64,000 nucleotides of DNA from a bacterium (GTDB lineage Bacteria; Pseudomonadota; Alphaproteobacteria; Rhizobiales; Aestuariivirgaceae): NCBI GenBank assembly GCA_022842165.1, contig JALHQC010000015.1, positions 12,030 to 76,029 of the forward strand. The letters run 5' to 3'. The number at the start of each line of letters is the position of its first letter. Position 1 is the first letter of the stretch. Below are positions 54,333 to 64,000 of this stretch, piece by piece. Below the pieces are notes generated by a model. That model was not told the origin of the DNA, searched no databases, and saw nothing but the letters and a program-made list of their open reading frames with translations. A program made the translations under genes and the position numbers.

Positions 54333-55874
54333 ATGCTCACTGGACTTCTGATAGTTGCCGCCCTGATTGCCAGTGTGGGCTTTGTCTATTTCTACGGGAA
54401 TTCCGCGCAAAGACGCAGAGGCCCGAATTCATATGCCTTGCCGCAAAGCGATGGCGGCGGCGCGCTTGACCGGGCCCTTGCTCCGCAAGAGGCCGCGCAT
54501 CCGGGCGAGACCGGCCTTCACATCATGCCAGACAATATGGAAGCTTTTGCTGCGCGCTGGCAGACGCTAAAGCTGGCGGGCCGCAGCCTCGATCTTCAAT
54601 ACTATTACTGGAAAGGCGACCTGACCGGGCGCCTGCTCTGCCTCGGGCTGATCGAGGCCGCGGACCGCGGCGTACGGGTGCGGCTTCTGCTCGACGACAT
54701 CAACAACTACGGTTTCGACAAGACCTACCTGGCGCTCGACAGCCACCCCAACATCCATGTCCGCCTGTTCAACCCGAGCCGCAGCCGGGAAGATCCGTTC
54801 CGCCGCGGCATTGAACTCATCGTCAAGTATTTCACCGCCACGCGCCGCATGCACAACAAGTGCTGGATCGCCGATGGCCGGATTGCGATCGCCGGGGGCC
54901 GGAACATCGGCGACGAATATTTCGACGCGTCCGAAACCGCGAATTTCCAGGATATCGACGTTCTCGCGGCGGGCAAGGCGGTCAAGGACGCCGAAGCGAT
55001 TTTCGACAGGTACTGGAACAGCGAGGCGGCCTTGCCCATCCGGCAGTTGCACCGCATCAGGAAGCCAAAGCTCGGCAAATTGAGATTGAAGCTCATGGCG
55101 GACTGCCGCAGCGATCGCGCGGCGCGTTTTCTCGCCATGGCCAAGTGCACGCCCGGTGAGGCATCTCTCGTGTTACCCATCTCCAGATTTCACTGGTCCG
55201 CCGAAGCGAAAATGATCGCCGATCCGCCGGAGAAGGCATCCGGCGAAGCGCGGTCGGAATGGATGGGCGAGCGGATCATCGAGCTCATAAAGTCGGCACG
55301 GACGAGCCTGGCTATCGTTTCGCCCTACTTCATCCCCGGCCAGACCGGCGCCAGAACGATGGCCGGGCTGGCCGCGGATGGAGTGAACATCCGTGTGCTG
55401 ACGAATTCGCTTGCCGCAACCGACGTGATAGCCGTTCATGGCGCCTATGCGCGGTATCGCGAACTTCTGGTTAAGAGCTCGGTGAAACTGTTCGAGCTGA
55501 AACCCGAACCGAGACGGCATCGGGCCTCGCTCTTCGGCTCCACCACGGCCAGCCTGCACACGAAGGCCCTGATGGTGGATGGCGGCGTGGGCTTCATCGG
55601 CTCCTTCAATCTCGATCCCCGCTCGCGGTCGATCAATACCGAAATGGGCATCCTGTTTCGCTGCCCCGTTCTGGCTCGGCAGTTGCGAGCGATTTTCGAG
55701 AGCCAGATTTCGCCCGAAATCAGCTACCGGGTGAGCGAGAGCGGGGGAAACCTGCAGTGGGCGGACGTGCGTGACGGCAAGAGCCGCACTCACACCAGCG
55801 AGCCCGATGCGCCACTGCGGCGGATCATCCCGGCCACCATCATCGCGTGGCTGCCGATTGAATCGCAATTATAG
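54333..55874 (+). CDS. Phospholipase D family, cardiolipin synthase ClsC-like
   Basis: Two HKD motifs (RMHNKCWIAD, LHTKALMVD), GGRNIGDEYF, TNSLAATDV; N-terminal TM. Confidence 0.88.
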   Translation: MLTGLLIVAALIASVGFVYFYGNSAQRRRGPNSYALPQSDGGGALDRALAPQEAAHPGETGLHIMPDNMEAFAARWQTLKLAGRSLDLQYYYWKGDLTGRLLCLGLIEAADRGVRVRLLLDDINNYGFDKTYLALDSHPNIHVRLFNPSRSREDPFRRGIELIVKYFTATRRMHNKCWIADGRIAIAGGRNIGDEYFDASETANFQDIDVLAAGKAVKDAEAIFDRYWNSEAALPIRQLHRIRKPKLGKLRLKLMADCRSDRAARFLAMAKCTPGEASLVLPISRFHWSAEAKMIADPPEKASGEARSEWMGERIIELIKSARTSLAIVSPYFIPGQTGARTMAGLAADGVNIRVLTNSLAATDVIAVHGAYARYRELLVKSSVKLFELKPEPRRHRASLFGSTTASLHTKALMVDGGVGFIGSFNLDPRSRSINTEMGILFRCPVLARQLRAIFESQISPEISYRVSESGGNLQWADVRDGKSRTHTSEPDAPLRRIIPATIIAWLPIESQL

Positions 55875-55877
55875 GCT

Positions 55878-57254
55878 TCAGCCGATTGACGGCGTCGACA
55901 GCAGCCACAGGCCGAAGGCCGTGTAGACTACCATGGCCGCAGCGAGCGGGGCTTCGAGCTTCCAGGCCGCTTGGCGTGTCAGGCCGCTCCGCATGGCGAT
56001 CGAATGGGCGACCGCGACACTGACGATGTGGCCCAGAACGATTGCCGTGGTCTGGGCCGCGAAAATGGCCGCAACGCCCGATGCGTTGTTGAGGAACGAG
56101 GCAGTTACATGCTGGCCCCGAAGGCCCAAGAGATCCGCGCCCGTGCCGAGAGGATCGTTCGCGGCAAGAGCGAAATACTGGATGTTCACCAGCGCGTCGC
56201 CAAGATAATGGGCGAAATGATAGGCAATCGAGATCGGGATCAGCGCGTAGACGAAGCGGCCGGCGTGCAAGCGCAGGACGCCCGGCTTGCCCGCCCAGAG
56301 CCAGCCGAGCGCCATGCTGGCGAAATAGAACGCCGCCAGAACTCCGAATGACGCGGCCAGCCCCAACGTGTTGGCGGCAACAAGCGCCGTCCGCCCGGGG
56401 TGATCCAGCGGATTGATGCCAATTGAAGACAGCCACAAGAACGTGTTGGCGAAGCCATCGAAGGAAATCGTGCTCAAGGTGAGCAGCACGAAAACGCTGC
56501 CCGCGACGGGAAGAGCCGGCCGCACGGCAAGGCCCGCGCCGGGAAGGCGGAGCACCAGGCGCCCATTTACTCCGACCGGCGCCGCAGACGAGAGTTGGGA
56601 AAGGAAAATGGCGAATGGATCGCCCCGCCCCAGCCAAGCCTCAGCGCCGAAAACGATCATGGCCGCCAGCGTCATCACGGCATAGGTGGAGACGGCCATA
56701 GCGAGACGTTCCGGATCCTCGGGGGATGGGTAAACGAGCTGGAACCACGCGAAAGCCGCAAAGATGACGACTGCGGGCACGTAATCCATCCAGGGCGGAA
56801 ATCTCAGCAGCGGTTTCAAGCCTGAAGCCGCGTAAATTCCCCTGAACGGGTTGAGCGCCAGCCACAGGTTTCCGAAAACCGGATGAAGCAGCACGATGAC
56901 GACCCACCAGATCGTCCAGATCGCGAGGGGCAGAAGATTTTCCGCGGGATCGTGCGGGCCGATGAAGCCGATCGATATCAGCGCGGCGAGAATCACCAGG
57001 CTCGCGAGGCTGACCGCGACCGTCAGCTTTGCCGGAGCTTCACCAAGTTTCTTCCGGGCCGCCGTCAGGGTTTCGAAGTAGCGATCGGGCAGGACCGAGA
57101 CGATCGCGAATGTGGCGAGCACGGCGAGAGCTCCGCCCATGATGACAAGGCCCGTCGGCAGCAGGAGCACGAACCCCCGCGCCGAACTGTGCGCGGAGGC
57201 CGGAGCCGCGGTTGCAAGCGCCACCACGGCAAGTGCCGCGGCGAAGCGCATCAT
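55878..57254 (-). CDS. Conserved polytopic membrane protein (FedB / 'fenitrothion hydrolase'-annotated family), function unknown
   Basis: Signal ASA|HSS, WTIWWV, LIPISIAYHFAHY, DPLGTG.DLLG, GHIVSV.VAH. Confidence 0.6.
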   Translation of the reverse strand: MMRFAAALAVVALATAAPASAHSSARGFVLLLPTGLVIMGGALAVLATFAIVSVLPDRYFETLTAARKKLGEAPAKLTVAVSLASLVILAALISIGFIGPHDPAENLLPLAIWTIWWVVIVLLHPVFGNLWLALNPFRGIYAASGLKPLLRFPPWMDYVPAVVIFAAFAWFQLVYPSPEDPERLAMAVSTYAVMTLAAMIVFGAEAWLGRGDPFAIFLSQLSSAAPVGVNGRLVLRLPGAGLAVRPALPVAGSVFVLLTLSTISFDGFANTFLWLSSIGINPLDHPGRTALVAANTLGLAASFGVLAAFYFASMALGWLWAGKPGVLRLHAGRFVYALIPISIAYHFAHYLGDALVNIQYFALAANDPLGTGADLLGLRGQHVTASFLNNASGVAAIFAAQTTAIVLGHIVSVAVAHSIAMRSGLTRQAAWKLEAPLAAAMVVYTAFGLWLLSTPSIG

Positions 57255-57952
57255 GTTCCGACACCGACGTAGCGGTCAATCATCTGGCGGCTGGCCTTCA
57301 ACTCGCCGACGGCCACGGTCGCGGTCACCCGGCCATTCTCCACGAAGGCGACGCGATCCGCGACCGGGAGCACTGCGTCGACACGCTGTTCCACCAATAT
57401 GGTGGTGACCCCTTGCGCCTTCAGGTCGATGACGGATTGCCGGATGCGGGCGATCATCGCGGGCATCAGGCCTTCGGTCGGTTCATCGAGCAGCAGCACT
57501 TTGGGATCGATGCAGAGTGCTCGCGCCATGGCCAGCATCTGCTGTTCACCGCCGCTCATGGTGCCGGCGCGCTGGCCAAGACGTTCCTTCAGCAGCGGGA
57601 AGACTGCCAGCGCGCGGTCTAGCACCTGCGGCCCGGAATTTCGTGTCATCAAACCGATGCGCAAGTTTTCGATCACCGTCAATTCCGAGAAGAGCCTCCG
57701 GCCCTGCGGCACGTAACCGATGCCGAGGCGCGGAACCTGATGGGCGGCAAGCTTCCCCAAATCCGTGCCATCGAAGAGGATTTGCCCGCTCTTCGGCGGC
57801 ACGAGGCCCATGATGGCCTTCAGCGCTGTGGTCTTTCCGGCGCCGTTGCGGCCCAGAAGGCAGAGGATTTCACCGGCCTCCAGTTTCAATGCAAAGGCAC
57901 GGAGCACCTGCGCCGCGCCGTAGAAGCAGTCGATATCGCGAATATCAAGCAT
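57251..57952 (-). CDS. Liv-type ABC ATPase, LivF-like
   Basis: GRNGAGKTT, MSGGEQQM, LDEPTEGL. Confidence 0.9.
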   Translation of the reverse strand: MLDIRDIDCFYGAAQVLRAFALKLEAGEILCLLGRNGAGKTTALKAIMGLVPPKSGQILFDGTDLGKLAAHQVPRLGIGYVPQGRRLFSELTVIENLRIGLMTRNSGPQVLDRALAVFPLLKERLGQRAGTMSGGEQQMLAMARALCIDPKVLLLDEPTEGLMPAMIARIRQSVIDLKAQGVTTILVEQRVDAVLPVADRVAFVENGRVTATVAVGELKASRQMIDRYVGVGT

Positions 57953-58655
57953 CGGCAGTTCCCAGATAGGCGTTCTGCACGGCGCGATTGGCGCGGATAT
58001 CCTCCGGCGCTCCCTCTGCCAGGATCTGTCCGCGGTCCAGCACCGTGATGCGGTGGGCGAGTTCCATCACCACGGGCATGTTATGCTCGATCAGCAGGAC
58101 GGTGGCGGTTTTCGACAGCGTGCGGACGAGTTCGATGAAATTCGTAATCTCGGAATCGGAGAGACCTTGCGTCGGCTCGTCGAGGATGAGGAGCTTGGGA
58201 CGAAGTGCCAGTCCCATCGCGACCTCGAGAAGACGCTGATGGCCATAGGCCAGTGTTCCGGCAATCTGCGCGGCTCGGCCGGCGAGGCCGACTCGCTCGA
58301 GATATTCAAGGCTCGATTTCGCACCAGGTTGATGCGCGGCGAGTGCGACGTTTTCCGCCACCGTCAGGTTTCCGTAGATGCTGGTGATCTGGAATGTGTA
58401 AGCAATGCCAAGCCGTACGCGCTTAAAAGCGGGAAGCCTGGTGATGTCGTCGCCTTCGAAGAGGACAGCGCCGGAACTGGGCGCGAGCCGGCCCGAGACA
58501 AGGCTGACGAAGGTCGTCTTGCCGGCGCCATTGGGGCCGATGACGGCGCGTATCTCTCCGACCTCCAGCGTGAAATTCACATCCGACACGGCCTTGAGGC
58601 CGCCGAAACTGCGCGACAGGTTGCGGGTTTCCAGAAGCGGGCTCACGGCAGCCAT
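57945..58655 (-). CDS. Liv-type ABC ATPase, LivG-like
   Basis: GPNGAGKTT, LAYGHQR, LDEPTQGL, IEHNM; start set at ATG 58655. Confidence 0.88.
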   Translation of the reverse strand: MAAVSPLLETRNLSRSFGGLKAVSDVNFTLEVGEIRAVIGPNGAGKTTFVSLVSGRLAPSSGAVLFEGDDITRLPAFKRVRLGIAYTFQITSIYGNLTVAENVALAAHQPGAKSSLEYLERVGLAGRAAQIAGTLAYGHQRLLEVAMGLALRPKLLILDEPTQGLSDSEITNFIELVRTLSKTATVLLIEHNMPVVMELAHRITVLDRGQILAEGAPEDIRANRAVQNAYLGTADA

Positions 58656-59593
58656 TTCCAGTAGCGCTCGCGGATGGTGCCGAGAATGCCCTTCGGGAAG
58701 AACAGAACCAGCAGGATCAGCACGACGCCGATCATCAGCAGATTGGCGTTGGTGTAGCTCGAAGCGAGATCGACCAGCACGAACATCAGGCCAGTTCCAA
58801 GCACCGGCCCCAGAACTGTGGATGCGCCGCCAAGCAGGGTCCACAGCAGGGGATGGATCGAGTACTGGATCGAGGCCAGCGTCGAGCCTGCATAGGCGAA
58901 CATCAAGGCGTAGCAAGCGCCCGAAAATGCCGACAGCGTGCCGGACATGACGAAGGCCGCCAGCTTGTAGCGCTGGACATCATAGCCCAGCATGGACGTA
59001 CGCGTCTCGTTCTCGCGGATGGCAATCAGGATGTGGCCTATCCTCGAGCGCACGATCAGGAGGCTGAACGCAATAGCGCAACCGAGGAAAGCAAGCGCGA
59101 GATTGTAGCGGAGGACCGCGTTGGCGAGATCGACATCGAACCCAAGGAACGCAAACTTCCGGATCGTATCAGGGATGACGATGCCTTCATCACCCCTCGT
59201 ATACTCACCGAAATAGAGAACGGTAAGGAAGGCGGCCTGGCTGAACATCAGGGTCACGATCATAAAGGCAACGCCGCTGGCACGGAGCGTGATGACCCCC
59301 ATGACGAGCGAGACGGCAAGGCCCGCGAGAACAGCGAAGGCGAAGGCAGCGGGAACCGTGAGACCCATCAGCGTGGTGCCGAGGGCTGCTGCATAAAGCC
59401 CGGTGGCAAAGAACATCGCATGGCCAAGGCTCAGGAGGCCGGTGTAGCCGAAGAGCAGGTTGTAGCCGATGGCAAAGATCGCCAGCACCATGATGCGCGT
59501 GAGCATGAGCACGATGTATTCGCTGGCCGCGAACTGCGCGAGAAAAAGCGCGGCGATGACGGCGAGGTGGAGAAACATCACGCGCACGCTCAT
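58643..59593 (-). CDS. Liv-type ABC permease, LivM-like
   Basis: NLLFGYTGLLSLGHAMFF, AIRENE.R..MLGY, LLGG..T..GP. Confidence 0.88.
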   Translation of the reverse strand: MSVRVMFLHLAVIAALFLAQFAASEYIVLMLTRIMVLAIFAIGYNLLFGYTGLLSLGHAMFFATGLYAAALGTTLMGLTVPAAFAFAVLAGLAVSLVMGVITLRASGVAFMIVTLMFSQAAFLTVLYFGEYTRGDEGIVIPDTIRKFAFLGFDVDLANAVLRYNLALAFLGCAIAFSLLIVRSRIGHILIAIRENETRTSMLGYDVQRYKLAAFVMSGTLSAFSGACYALMFAYAGSTLASIQYSIHPLLWTLLGGASTVLGPVLGTGLMFVLVDLASSYTNANLLMIGVVLILLVLFFPKGILGTIRERYWKWLP

Positions 59594-60471
59594 CTTGCGG
59601 TTACACCGAAGAGGCCTTGCGGGCGCACCACCAGCACCAGCGCCACGGCAAGCGTTGCGATGATTGAGGCAAGTGTCGGGGAGAAGAAGACCGAGATGAT
59701 GCCATCGGCCATGCCGATAATGAGGGCCGCGATGACGCTGCCCTTGATCGAACCCAGCCCCCCGATGATGACGACGATGAAGCTCATGAGCAGCGGGTCG
59801 AGCCCCATCAGGTAGTGTGCCTGCTGGATCGGCACGATCAGGACGGCAGCGACGGCAACCAGCGCGGCTCCGGCCACGAAGACGGCGGAATAGACCGTGT
59901 TGACCGGAATGCCGAAGGCGGTGGCGGTCTCACGGTCGAACTGGGTGACCCGCATGATGAGGCCATAGCGGGTGCGGGCCAGAACCCACCATACTCCAAC
60001 CAGGATGAAGACAGAGGCCACGACGACGAAAAGCTTGTAGCCGGAATAGCCGAACCACGGGAAGGCAATGCGATAGGTGAAAGGTGCCGCGACAGGCTTG
60101 GCATCCGCTCCGAACAGCGACAACGCCAGTTGCTGGATGACGAACAGCAAGCCGATGGTGGCGACGATTGTGGCTTCGGGATCGTACTTGATGCGGCGGA
60201 GCAAAAGCCGCTCGGTAAGAAAGGCAAGAAAACCGACCGCGGCCGGTGCGACGACCAGCGCGGCCATGAAACCCGCGAGCGGCCCCCCCGGCACCATTTT
60301 CGCCGTCCACCACGCCAGCATGGCACCCAGCATGAAGAATTCGCCATGCGCGACATTGACGACACGCATGACGCCAAAGACCAGCGACAGCCCGAGGGCT
60401 GACAGCGCCAGCACGGCGGCGGCCACGGTGCCCTCAAGTATCGCCAGGAAGAGGTGAGGAAGAAAGGACAC
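59590..60471 (-). CDS. Liv-type ABC permease, LivH-like
   Basis: GLSLVFGVMRVVNVAHGEF, IIGGLGSIKG, RPQGLFG. Confidence 0.88.
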   Translation of the reverse strand: MSFLPHLFLAILEGTVAAAVLALSALGLSLVFGVMRVVNVAHGEFFMLGAMLAWWTAKMVPGGPLAGFMAALVVAPAAVGFLAFLTERLLLRRIKYDPEATIVATIGLLFVIQQLALSLFGADAKPVAAPFTYRIAFPWFGYSGYKLFVVVASVFILVGVWWVLARTRYGLIMRVTQFDRETATAFGIPVNTVYSAVFVAGAALVAVAAVLIVPIQQAHYLMGLDPLLMSFIVVIIGGLGSIKGSVIAALIIGMADGIISVFFSPTLASIIATLAVALVLVVRPQGLFGVTAR

Positions 60472-60540
60472 GGCGCTGAGATGCTCGATCTGTGTTTGCC
60501 GGACGTCTCCTCCCCGGCAGAACCGGAGAGGAGGCGAGTG

Positions 60541-61848
60541 TCAAAGCGCCATCTTGGTGTAGTCGCCTTCCGGCTCGTAGAGGCCCTCCTCGATCGTGGT
60601 GCGATAGACAACTTCGGCGACGCCCGATTTCACCTGCGTGATGTTCTGGTGGCCGAAGCACTGGTGGATCTTGCCGTTGAACTGCTTGTCGCCTTGCGGG
60701 TGCTCGTTGCCTTCCGCAAAGCTTGTCATGGCTTCGGTGGCCTCAATCAGTTTCGCCTTGTCGGCCGGGCCCTGATAGCCGGCAGACTCCATCGCCCTCT
60801 TCAGGATGAAAAGCGTCTCCCAACAGCCGAACATGTGGGAGAAGGTCGAGATGTCGGCGGCATCCGAGACGCTGGCGCCATTGGCATCAACGCCGACCTT
60901 CTCGCGGTAGAAGGTGTCATGCGGCTTCGGCGATGCGCCGGCAAAGCGCGGGTAGGCTTCCCAGAGATAGGAGCCTTCGAGGAACTCGAGTCCCGGGCTC
61001 TTGAGATCGACCGCCTCGAGGCTGTCGATGAAGCCGAAGAGCGCGGGGTGGCTCGAGCCGAAATGCTCGCCCAGTTCCTTGACGAAGGTGAGAACGGCGG
61101 GGCCGACCATCACGTGATAAATCACTTCCGTATCCGCCGGAATTTGCGGGAAGTATCGCGTAAAGGATGACTCCGTCGGCGGGATCGGGATCAGGGCGTT
61201 AACGTCGCCACCCTGAGCCTTGATGGCGGCGGAAAAATAGTCGCGATGATCGTGGCCGAAAGCAAAGTCCGGATAGATCATGCACACCTTCTTGCCGACG
61301 TTCTTGGCAATCCACGGCGCCATGGCGATGACCTGGCTTTTCACATCCGTGATGCCGGGCTGGAACGTGTAGCGGTTGAGGCCGGTCGAAGCCACGTGAT
61401 GGCCTTCGGAGACGACATAATAGGGCAGCTTCAGCTCGCCTGCGCGGGGTGCCGATCCCATCACCACATGGCTGAAGAGCGTGCCGAAGCCCACATCGCA
61501 CTTGTGCTGGGTTGCGAATTTCTCGACCACTTCGGCGCCGCGTCCTGGGTCCGTCCCGTCATCTTCCGCAATGATCTCGACCTTGCGACCGTTAATGCCG
61601 CCCTGTTCGTTGATGAGCGCCGCGGCGGCGGTCGTCGTACGCTCGTACCAGCGGCCATAGGCGGCGCCGATGCCGGTGCGATGGACCTGGAAGCCGATGC
61701 GGATGGGCTCGGAGGACTGCGCCTGCGCATAGCGCACGAAACCCGGGCCGGCGGCGAGGCCTGCCGCAGCGCCGGCGCCCATGAGCTTGATGGCCTTGCG
61801 GCGGGAAAGGCCGGGCTTTTTCGGAACTATCAGCTTGGAACCGTTCAT
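60541..61848 (-). CDS. Tat-exported Liv-type ABC substrate-binding protein
   Basis: LSRRKAIK twin-arginine signal, INEQGGINGR.VE...EDD; start ATG 61848 preferred. Confidence 0.85.
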   Translation of the reverse strand: MNGSKLIVPKKPGLSRRKAIKLMGAGAAAGLAAGPGFVRYAQAQSSEPIRIGFQVHRTGIGAAYGRWYERTTTAAAALINEQGGINGRKVEIIAEDDGTDPGRGAEVVEKFATQHKCDVGFGTLFSHVVMGSAPRAGELKLPYYVVSEGHHVASTGLNRYTFQPGITDVKSQVIAMAPWIAKNVGKKVCMIYPDFAFGHDHRDYFSAAIKAQGGDVNALIPIPPTESSFTRYFPQIPADTEVIYHVMVGPAVLTFVKELGEHFGSSHPALFGFIDSLEAVDLKSPGLEFLEGSYLWEAYPRFAGASPKPHDTFYREKVGVDANGASVSDAADISTFSHMFGCWETLFILKRAMESAGYQGPADKAKLIEATEAMTSFAEGNEHPQGDKQFNGKIHQCFGHQNITQVKSGVAEVVYRTTIEEGLYEPEGDYTKMAL

Positions 61849-61958
61849 CGCATCATCCTCCTGGTGTTTTTTGGGCCGGTTGTCGGCCATGTCCTTCCTG
61901 AGACGGAAGGCATCATAGCAAAAACGGAAACACAGGATAGAGGTAGCGGACCTTGGTC

Positions 61959-62420
61959 TCAGGCGATCTCGCGAAGCAGCCGCAACAATTCGGCGCGCTC
62001 GGCCGGGCTCAGGTTTTTCAGGGTTTCTTCGGTCACGGCCATGGCGGCAGGCAATCGCCGCACGATCACCTCCCTGCCCTGCGGCGTGATCTCGATCAGG
62101 TTGCGGCGGCTGTCATTGGGGTCGGCATGGGTGGTCAGGAGGCCGCGCCGGATCAGCCGGTCGACGACGCCCTTGATGGTCGCAACATCCATGGCCGTGT
62201 CGCGCCCCAACTGGTTCTGCGACACGGATTTCAACTCCGCCACCTTGACGAGGGCCGCCCACTGCGTAGGGGTGAGATCATCATCCATCCCACGTGCGAA
62301 GATCGCCGCGTGGCGCTGACCAGCCCTCCGGAGATAGAAGCCGACCTGGTCCTCAAGACGGTAGTTGCCGAGATCGATACCGGCGGCAGGCGGTTTGGGA
62401 TTGAGAGTGCGAAAGCTCAC
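61959..62420 (-). CDS. MarR-family regulator (NicR-like)
   Basis: YRLEDQVGFYLRRA.QRH..IF, LTPTQWAAL, MD.ATIKGVVDRL, D.RR. Confidence 0.88.
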   Translation of the reverse strand: MSFRTLNPKPPAAGIDLGNYRLEDQVGFYLRRAGQRHAAIFARGMDDDLTPTQWAALVKVAELKSVSQNQLGRDTAMDVATIKGVVDRLIRRGLLTTHADPNDSRRNLIEITPQGREVIVRRLPAAMAVTEETLKNLSPAERAELLRLLREIA

Positions 62421-63217
62421 CGTTCCACGAAGGCCTTCTCGATCACGTAGCTGCCGGGCTCGTTGCTGCTGCCTTCGATGAAGCTGCGGGCGCGCAGGAG
62501 TTCGGTGATATCGGAGAGGAAGGCCGGGCTGCCGCAGACCATAACGCGATCCTGCGTTGCTTCGAGTGGCGCGAGGCCTAGCGTATCAGTCAGCTTGTTG
62601 GAGGCCAGTGCAGCAGTGATCCGCCCGCCGTTGCGGAAGGGCTCGCGCGTGATTGTCGGATAGTAGAGAAGCTTGGCGCGGATTTCCTCGCCCAGCAGCT
62701 CATCGTTCGGCAGGCTGTTTTCGATCTCGTCCGCATAGGCGAGTTCATTGGCGAAGCGACAGCCGTGGACCAGCACGATCTTGTCGAAGCGCTCATAGGC
62801 AGCGGGATCCTTCGCGATGCTCAGGAAAGGCGCCAGGCCGGTGCCAGTGCCGAGGAGAAACAGGTTGCGGCCCGGAAGCAGGTTATCGATCAGCAGCGTG
62901 CCGGTCGCTTTCTTGCCGACAAGCACCTTGTCGCCAACTTTCAGGTGCTGAAGCTTCGAGGTCAGCGGCCCTTCCTGCACCTTGATCGACAGGAATTCGA
63001 GCTGTTCGGCATAATTCGGGCTGACGAGACTATAGGCTCGCAGCAACGGCTTCCCGTTGACGGGCAAGCCGATCATCGTGAACTGCCCGTTCTCATAGCG
63101 GAATGAGGGGGACCGGGTCGTGGTGAAGCTGAACAGCCGGTCAGTCCAGTGCCGGACTTTCAGGACTTCTTCTTCGAAAAGCGCACTCATGAAAGGGTCC
63201 GAAACTGGGGTTGTCAT
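62417..63217 (-). CDS. fpr: Ferredoxin--NADP+ reductase (bacterial FPR)
   Basis: VRHWTDRLFSF, RAYS, GPLTS.LQ, GTGTGLAPF, CGSP, EKAFVE. Confidence 0.92.
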   Translation of the reverse strand: MTTPVSDPFMSALFEEEVLKVRHWTDRLFSFTTTRSPSFRYENGQFTMIGLPVNGKPLLRAYSLVSPNYAEQLEFLSIKVQEGPLTSKLQHLKVGDKVLVGKKATGTLLIDNLLPGRNLFLLGTGTGLAPFLSIAKDPAAYERFDKIVLVHGCRFANELAYADEIENSLPNDELLGEEIRAKLLYYPTITREPFRNGGRITAALASNKLTDTLGLAPLEATQDRVMVCGSPAFLSDITELLRARSFIEGSSNEPGSYVIEKAFVER

Positions 63218-63221
63218 AAAG

Positions 63222-63241
63222 ATCGTTCGTATACAAACGAT
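63222..63241. promoter_or_regulatory. 20-bp palindromic operator, probable MarR site
   Basis: ATCGTTCGTATACAAACGAT (one mismatched pair), 4 nt upstream of the fpr ATG. Confidence 0.7.
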
Positions 63242-63374
63242 AACTAGGAATGCCGGATGGTGTTGTCAACGGCGGAGGCTATGAACTTTAGGCGGAATGC
63301 CATGCCTCAGGATGAGGTTGGAAGTGCTCATCCCGAAGGTCTATCACTTGCCATCCGTCACTCTTGAGGTTCAG

Positions 63375-64000
63375 ATGAAAGCCCTGCGTTTCCACCAGGC
63401 TCGCGATCTGCGGATCGATCATATCCCGCAACCAGACAAGCCGGTGGGCGATCAGGTGCTGATGCGGGTTTCCTACTGCGGCATTTGCGGCACTGATCTC
63501 CATGAATATCTGTCGGGACCGATCATTCTGCCGGTCAAGCCTCACCCCGAAACCGGCGCCAAGGTGCCAATCATTCTGGGCCACGAGTTTTCCGCAGTGG
63601 TGACGGATACGGGACCGGACGTCTCGGACGTCAAGGCGGGAGACCGTGTCGCCATAATCCCGCACCTGATCAAGGCGGGCGACTATTACACCCGCCGCAA
63701 CCTCGGGCAGTTCAGCCCGGCGACAGGCCTTGTCGGCCTAACCTGGCACTGGGGCGGCATGGGAGAACACGCCATGGTGCCGGAGCAGAATGTCGTGAAG
63801 CTTCCCGACACCGTGAGCGACGAACAAGGCGCATTGCTGGAACCCGCCGCGGTGGCGGTAAACGCCGTCGACTATGCAGGGGTCGCGGCTGGCAGCACGG
63901 TTCTGATCACCGGAGCCGGGGCCATTGGTGCCTTGACGGCACTGGCAGCGCTGGCCGCAGGCGCTACGAAGGTGTTCCTCTACGAACCCAATGCCAGCCG
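63375..64000 (+). CDS. Zn-dependent medium-chain dehydrogenase (2,3-butanediol dehydrogenase-like), N-terminal part
   Basis: Manual translation: MKALRFH..RDLRID, CGICGTDLHEY..GP, GHEFS, LLEPAAVA, GAGAIG; runs off the window edge. Confidence 0.85.
   Translation, partial: MKALRFHQARDLRIDHIPQPDKPVGDQVLMRVSYCGICGTDLHEYLSGPIILPVKPHPETGAKVPIILGHEFSAVVTDTGPDVSDVKAGDRVAIIPHLIKAGDYYTRRNLGQFSPATGLVGLTWHWGGMGEHAMVPEQNVVKLPDTVSDEQGALLEPAAVAVNAVDYAGVAAGSTVLITGAGAIGALTALAALAAGATKVFLYEPNAS

Follow-up and report, generated by a model that had tools for sequence, protein, structure and literature searches.

The locus considered here raises the question of what an operon headed by a ferredoxin-NADP+ reductase (FPR) gene takes up, and to which enzyme it passes electrons, when it encodes no oxygenase. 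The operon lies in a 64,000-nt stretch of contig JALHQC010000015.1 (GenBank assembly GCA_022842165.1, positions 12,030 to 76,029 of the forward strand) from an alphaproteobacterium of the family Aestuariivirgaceae; "the window" denotes this whole stretch. A preliminary description of the DNA had proposed an inducible uptake-plus-redox system and left its ligand unnamed; comparative evidence upholds the system, and gene context, taken over about 95 loci, indicates that the ligand is nicotinate or 6-hydroxynicotinate. We consider it probable that the operon provides regulation, uptake, and electron supply for reductive nicotinate degradation in Alphaproteobacteria, of the type that proceeds via tetrahydro-6-oxonicotinate (THON). 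It would then be a member of an already described catabolic system for vitamin B3 (nicotinate), present here in a split arrangement, and ordinary except for its last gene, which encodes a polytopic membrane protein that we call MEM.

Open reading frame (ORF) listing together with Pfam and NCBIfam gives eight minus-strand genes that run from fpr through marR and an ABC importer to MEM, with one palindrome in front:

63241-63269, minus strand: candidate fpr promoter, with TTGACA at 63269-63264, a 17-nt spacer and TAGTTA at 63246-63241, read from the sequence
63223-63240, no strand: operator core of 18 bp, TCGTTCGTATACAAACGA, the presumed MarR site, within a 20-bp palindrome at 63222-63241 that follows a recurring consensus
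62417-63217, minus strand: fpr, bacterial subclass-I ferredoxin-NADP+ reductase (Pfam FAD_binding_6 and NAD_binding_1)
61959-62420, minus strand: marR, predicted BpsR-like MarR repressor (Pfam MarR, 35.5 bits)
60541-61890, minus strand: periplasmic substrate-binding protein (SBP) with a Tat signal, presumed to bind nicotinate (Pfam Peripla_BP_6)
59590-60471, minus strand: ABC permease, LivH/UrtB-like (Pfam BPD_transp_2)
58643-59593, minus strand: ABC permease, LivM/UrtC-like (Pfam BPD_transp_2)
57945-58646, minus strand: ABC ATPase, LivG/UrtD-like, whose GTG start overlaps the stop of the permease gene (Pfam ABC_tran)
57251-57952, minus strand: ABC ATPase, LivF/UrtE-like (Pfam ABC_tran)
55878-57254, minus strand: MEM, a 458-aa polytopic membrane protein with a signal peptide (no Pfam or NCBIfam family)

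The eight genes had been described as lying on one strand and mostly overlapping, and indeed five of the junctions overlap by 4-8 nt: from fpr to MEM they are a 4-nt overlap, gaps of 68 and 69 nt, and overlaps of 4, 4, 8, and 4 nt. A scan of the two gaps found no terminator-like hairpin in either.

The reductive nicotinate gene cluster

The link to nicotinate comes from the company that MEM and the importer keep in other genomes. For counts of gene context and of operator sites we drew on a further 80 species loci that surround MEM homologues and amount to 1.47 Mb. Within 10 kb of MEM, SBP and ABC genes are found in 72-73 of these loci, the gene for 6-hydroxynicotinate reductase (Hnr) in 29, marR in 27, a Mo-hydroxylase in 18, fpr in 13, and nicotinate phosphoribosyltransferase (NAPRTase) in 11; in 23 loci a member of the isochorismatase family (nicotinamidase-like) is a neighbour. 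Hnr is a Cys-rich protein of 505 aa that recurs beside MEM and the ABC genes; it belongs to no Pfam family, and 6-hydroxynicotinate reductase is its NCBI/JGI name. The gene order around hnr is that of a Mo-hydroxylase (FAD and 2Fe-2S/MoCo subunits), hnr, a UPF0280 gene, and two AA_synth genes.

This cluster has been described before. According to the passages of Shettigar et al. (PMC3511419) that deal with it, it occurs in Azorhizobium caulinodans (ORS571, AZC_2790-2804), Bradyrhizobium japonicum (blr3818-3830), and Rhodopseudomonas palustris (HaA2, RPB_1658-1671), and encodes the three initial steps by which nicotinate is degraded via THON; it was modelled on the nic cluster of Eubacterium barkeri, for which Alhapel 2006 is cited, and a Bradyrhizobiaceae homologue of Hnr is reported to be 42% identical to the E. 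barkeri enzyme. The parts given there are a Mo nicotinate hydroxylase, 6-hydroxynicotinate reductase, an enamidase, a Liv-type "putative nicotinate ABC transporter", and conserved unknowns, and the present system matches them by parts list; FPR is not among the parts listed in those passages. The ABC genes of the window appear to be the "putative nicotinate ABC transporter" of the THON cluster, and MEM is very probably one of its conserved unknowns.

Unlike the Azorhizobium-type cluster, that of the present genome is split over at least three contigs, and the window holds the regulator, importer, FPR, and MEM only. The hnr gene is on contig C55 (2737-4365), and its product is 81% identical to an Aestuariivirga litoralis protein that NCBI names 6-hydroxynicotinate reductase; a Mo-hydroxylase adjoins it (C55:4191-7834; Pfam FAD_binding_5, Fer2_2, and MoCoBD_1/2), and UPF0280 and AA_synth genes are also on C55. 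An enamidase-like hydrolase on contig C1 (189601-190839) is 71% identical to the amidohydrolase of a Sulfitobacter nic island, and the nicotinamidase-like gene of this genome is on contig C13. The Liv-type transporter and the nic enzyme genes, which are on separate contigs here, are linked in 29 of the 80 loci as well as in Sulfitobacter, where a single island on plasmid P3 carries FNR, the amidohydrolase, MarR, Hnr, the Mo enzyme, MEM, and the ABC genes.

The importer itself has the parts of a HAAT system (LivJHMGF/UrtABCDE), i.e. one Peripla_BP_6 SBP, two BPD_transp_2 permeases, and two ABC_tran ATPases; it differs from the known systems in the translationally coupled 458-aa polytopic protein and in the Tat signal on its SBP. 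Orthologues of the SBP, at 62-87% identity, are present in all related loci.

Several further genes accompany the nic genes. On C55, ndh-hnr-UPF0280-AA_synth stand in a strand-run (L040:713-12872, minus strand) with an amidohydrolase, an OHCU decarboxylase, which is a marker of purine catabolism, and three ORFs without a Pfam match. A UPF0280 protein with a weak ApbE-like match always follows hnr (L024:17240-18154, L040:1823-2740, and L042:5124-5984), and may be a maturation factor of the reductase, possibly for flavin attachment. A hydantoinase A/B (HyuA/HyuB) pair occurs in the nic clusters of L026 (667-4503), L074, L078, L080, L089, L103, and L120, often with its own operator; its best NCBIfam match is caprolactamase, below the cut-off. 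No more than 4 of the 80 loci gave an enamidase homologue, and the pair suggests an ATP-dependent ring opener as an alternative. Directly upstream of SBP in L063, L072, L077, L084, L091, and L096 (at about 4.2-5.2 kb), which are loci of Arenicellales, Parasphingorhabdus, and other gammaproteobacterial or unclassified origin, is a gene for a SAM-dependent methyltransferase that could act on a pyridine nitrogen, as in trigonelline-type chemistry.

The palindromic operator and its presumed MarR regulator

The two arms of the palindrome in front of the operon match but for one position, and the window has a single copy, against none expected in shuffles, in agreement with the one palindromic operator first proposed. 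When the 4.3-Mb genome is scored with a weight matrix built from related sites, the only strong operator is the one before fpr, at 29.9 bits; the runner-up, on contig C23, reaches 19.1 bits and lies in apparent coding sequence. The degenerate consensus, TYGTTNGT-NN-ACNAACRA, is matched with at most one mismatch 27 times in the 1.47 Mb of the 80 loci, against about 0.85 expected by our own count from the degeneracy of the pattern, and all 27 sites are intergenic, flanking hnr, fpr, marR, SBP, hyuA, the FAD subunit, or MEM. It is present in L023, L026, L032, and L042. The motif stands upstream of fpr in genomes G009 (L032) and G193 (L026), where fpr comes after the ABC genes or MEM; G193 has it upstream of hyuA-hyuB-SBP and between marR and the next operon as well, and G094 upstream of SBP. 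The nic island on plasmid P3 of Sulfitobacter mediterraneus contains four sites (0.09 expected), at positions that include the gap between FNR and the amidohydrolase, the front of the hydroxylase operon, and the front of SBP. MarR, found in 27 of the 80 loci, is the sole regulator that travels with the sites. These observations support the palindrome as the predicted MarR operator.

The window MarR aligns with solved structures at 133 bits for 2NNN and at 92 bits (91.8, E 4e-25) for BpsR of Bordetella (6PCP/6PCO). In BpsR, 6-hydroxynicotinate (6-HNA) is contacted by Tyr15, His23, Arg26, and His32 (PMC6837509); the corresponding residues of the window MarR are Y20, F28, R31, and H37, so that three of the four are kept. 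Among 22 MarR orthologues the Tyr and the Arg are each kept in 21 and the His in 18, with Phe at the fourth position in 18. This similarity supports the assignment of the MarR to the nicotinate-regulator kind, with 6-hydroxynicotinate as its predicted effector, and bears out the earlier comparison with NicR, the regulator of Pseudomonas putida that is named beside BpsR as the nearest known type. BpsR of Bordetella bronchiseptica, which represses the nic genes and responds to 6-hydroxynicotinate, is likewise a MarR-family protein adjoining nicotinate genes, and has Tyr, Arg, and His in its 6-HNA pocket in common with the window MarR; it governs the aerobic maleamate (nicC/nicX) route, whereas the route proposed for the window MarR is the reductive one.

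The -10 element of the candidate fpr promoter directly abuts the palindrome, and since TAGTTA runs straight into it, a MarR dimer bound there would cover the -10/+1 region. We regard TTGACA/TAGTTA as a possible reading of the promoter; its -10 is weak, and it is absent from the list returned by a consensus scanner. The palindrome had been placed 4 nt before the fpr ATG, which holds for the longest frame. Solved FPRs and the fpr of the sister species align only from residue 10 of that frame, and the true start is therefore probably the ATG at 63190, 31 nt downstream of the palindrome. On its other side the palindrome faces a divergent dehydrogenase gene, as first described; Pfam identifies it as a genuine Zn-dependent alcohol dehydrogenase (Zn-ADH), and its start is probably near 63375 rather than at 63297.

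The extent of the regulon is a separate matter. The promoters of hnr on C55, the enamidase-like gene on C1, and the nicotinamidase-like gene pncA on C13 have no operator, their upstream regions scoring below 0 with the weight matrix. Because the only strong operator lies before fpr, the repressor appears limited to uptake, electron supply, and itself, i.e. in this strain the MarR appears to control its own operon only; because there is no MarR operator on C55, another regulator must control the nic genes there.

The proposed electron acceptor of FPR and the alternatives

The FPR of the window scores 288-355 bits against the solved subclass-I enzymes of Burkholderia (4F7D), Azotobacter vinelandii (1A8P), and Rhodobacter capsulatus (2BGI), with which it shares the two-domain architecture. 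Those enzymes are regarded as general or stress-related, whereas the window fpr heads a probable nicotinate operon and in relatives stands beside hnr: the layout of Aestuariivirga loci is Hnr, operator, FPR-MarR-ABC-MEM, with hnr divergent from fpr. The gene is the only one of its type in the present genome (G000). The sole good FPR homologue of G081, G009, and G193 likewise sits in the nic neighbourhood, and that of G177 is within 20 kb of MEM. 6-Hydroxynicotinate reductase (EC 1.3.7.1) draws its electrons from reduced ferredoxin, and because Hnr is ferredoxin-dependent we infer a chain from NADPH through FPR and, optionally, a ferredoxin to Hnr, a chain that would account for an fpr gene without an oxygenase. 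The most likely electron acceptor of FPR is thus 6-hydroxynicotinate reductase rather than an oxygenase, and the absence of an oxygenase from the operon, remarked on at the outset, fits an acceptor that is itself no oxygenase and is encoded beside fpr in related species. The acceptor had also been suggested to lie beyond the window. It is not in the remainder of the contig, which ends 3 kb further on and holds the rest of the Zn-ADH gene, a small ORF, and a class-III aminotransferase; hnr is on C55 instead.

The operation of the system may be pictured as follows. With no inducer present, a BpsR-like MarR dimer on the single palindrome that abuts the -10 element would block transcription of fpr-marR-ABC-MEM, and nicotinate or its first product, 6-hydroxynicotinate, would free the repressor from the operator. 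The Tat-exported SBP and the Liv/Urt-type transporter would then import nicotinate, as their context suggests, with MEM as an obligatory partner of the importer that would carry a periplasm-facing cluster of His, Asp, and Met. Electrons from NADPH would pass through FPR either to a ferredoxin or straight to the Fe-S domain of Hnr, and Hnr would reduce 6-hydroxynicotinate to tetrahydro-6-oxonicotinate.

Some observations weigh against this account. Since the promoters of hnr, the enamidase-like gene, and pncA lack the operator, the pathway does not form a single regulon in this genome. Of the BpsR ligand residues, His23 is replaced by Phe in the window MarR. The best solved relatives of the SBP bind aromatic acids or amides, at 54 bits only, and nicotinate is proposed as its substrate from gene context; the roles of the operon proteins in binding, transport, and catalysis are likewise predicted from their sequences. 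The operon has no ferredoxin gene. G094 has Hnr and lacks an FPR of the subclass-I type, so FPR is not indispensable to Hnr, and as the sole FPR of its genome the fpr product may serve general needs too.

The last point is also where another explanation begins, namely that fpr has a housekeeping or oxidative-stress role and answers to a MarR that senses stress in the manner of OhrR or SoxR, that the importer serves an unrelated amide or amino acid, and that the linkage to nic genes is incidental. The permeases and ATPases do match urea transporter models best, below the cut-off, and the window contains no nic enzyme gene. In several orders, nevertheless, the operator, MarR, SBP, and MEM keep company with hnr, the Mo-hydroxylase, pncA, and pncB, and the MarR scores 92 bits against BpsR and about 26-27 against OhrR, which leaves this explanation quite unlikely. 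Somewhat less improbable, though still unlikely, is that the importer serves NAD salvage, delivering nicotinamide or nicotinate to PncA/PncB with FPR as a passenger: NAPRTase heads the MEM-SBP-ABC operon in Mesorhizobium-type loci, and the nicotinamidase-like gene is frequent, as counted above. Most of the loci with NAPRTase or the nicotinamidase-like gene, however, have a Mo-hydroxylase and hnr within a few kb, and the present operon includes fpr and a BpsR-type repressor in a genome with a complete ndh-hnr set. Salvage and catabolic uses of the importer are not mutually exclusive.

The preliminary description had also considered the terminal membrane protein as the electron acceptor, which would make MEM a membrane redox enzyme reduced by FPR. 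Four His residues within the membrane that vary little or not at all (H346, H349, H409, and H417), together with Met and Tyr, could be read in this way, and the fold of MEM matches no known one in searches of the PDB. The His pairs are spaced by 3 and 8 residues, however, which is unfit for a di-haem bundle; in the model the conserved polar residues are predicted to be mainly periplasmic, away from a cytoplasmic flavoprotein; and MEM tracks the SBP (15 of 15 genomes, see below) and not FPR (13 of 80 loci). We consider this role of MEM very unlikely, and retain the uptake and electron-supply arm of nicotinate degradation, with Hnr as acceptor, as the explanation of the operon.

The membrane protein MEM

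The association of MEM with the importer is close. In a sample of 201 genomes of the order, the 15 with an orthologue of the SBP are the identical 15 with an orthologue of MEM, and in 61 of the 80 loci MEM shares the strand of the ABC genes and lies within 300 bp of them, as either the first or the last gene. Its closest homologues are from organisms named Aestuariivirga. A profile search returned 6,073 cluster representatives (clusters at 50% identity) at E ≤ 0.001, and the family takes in actinobacterial and haloarchaeal members, all annotated as hypothetical.

MEM and 24 of its homologues match no Pfam or NCBIfam family, and MEM has no sequence match in the PDB. An AlphaFold (AF2) model has a pLDDT of 89.7 and a pTM of 0.88; Foldseek against the PDB gave TM-scores of at most 0.2 for it, and a wide VIA-align search Z values of at most 6.4, to helical bundles only, results that do not imply a novel fold. 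Compared by hhalign with the metal permeases CopD and FTR1, the family gives probabilities of 1.1% and 0.1%, respectively, from small alignments (4 and 7 sequences). In every homologue a signal peptide ending in A-x-A precedes an invariant His, and the other invariant or near-invariant residues are D102, N106, N135, D266, H346, H349, Q359, D367, H409, H417, M441, and Y444. Hydropathy, charge, and the helices of the model together suggest ten helices with both ends outside and most of the conserved polar residues near the periplasmic face.

As to function, two ideas lead: MEM may be a metal-dependent enzyme that faces the periplasm and readies the substrate, or it may serve the importer as an accessory subunit. 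In a fuller form, which we offer tentatively, MEM would represent an undescribed large family of 10-helix proteins in Bacteria and haloarchaea, in which the His at the mature N-terminus joins conserved His, Asp, Met, and Tyr residues near the outer face in a metal site, possibly for copper, that is reachable from the periplasm, and of which one branch in Proteobacteria is an obligatory sixth component of a vitamin B3 ABC importer; MEM could then act as a pre-processing enzyme in the periplasm or as an accessory transporter subunit of a new kind. A few members of the family adjoin PCuAC-like, cupredoxin-like, or P19-like proteins or a P-type ATPase. PCuAC-like neighbours are rare (2 of the 80 loci by tblastn, and L031, L032, L034, and L042), and we do not build on a copper link. 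The long fused forms of MEM (P0337, P0369, P0365, P0393, and P0329) carry TPR only or nothing. The name "fenitrothion hydrolase" (FedA) borne by some relatives is automatic naming only, and a literature search and tblastn of plasmids found neither a sequence nor a description of FedA from Burkholderia sp. NF100.

Two observations concern the surroundings of MEM genes. On pHM500 of Haloferax mediterranei (L043:5261-10807), a distant homologue is flanked by genes for a P19-like/DUF7350 protein and a heavy-metal P-type ATPase and by an 85-aa ORF, a context that hints that the wider family handles metal ions. In the window, a PLD/cardiolipin-synthase-like gene (54333-55874, plus strand) converges on the end of MEM; it is kept as a neighbour in the sister species (L022), and its conservation there is therefore a matter of genus synteny, outside the operon.

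Together, these results give an operon that had looked like an orphan a concrete ligand and a concrete electron acceptor, each at the strength stated above. What they add to the described pathway is modest, namely the proposed link from FPR to Hnr and a repressor that in this strain appears restricted to the uptake and electron-supply genes. Through a dedicated, co-regulated FPR, aerobes could supply electrons to a ring reductase that depends on ferredoxin and first became known in an anaerobe, and the operator consensus offers a means of annotating nicotinate regulons in Alphaproteobacteria. The real potential for discovery lies only in MEM, a member of a large and nameless family with no match to a solved fold that is tightly coupled to a vitamin importer.

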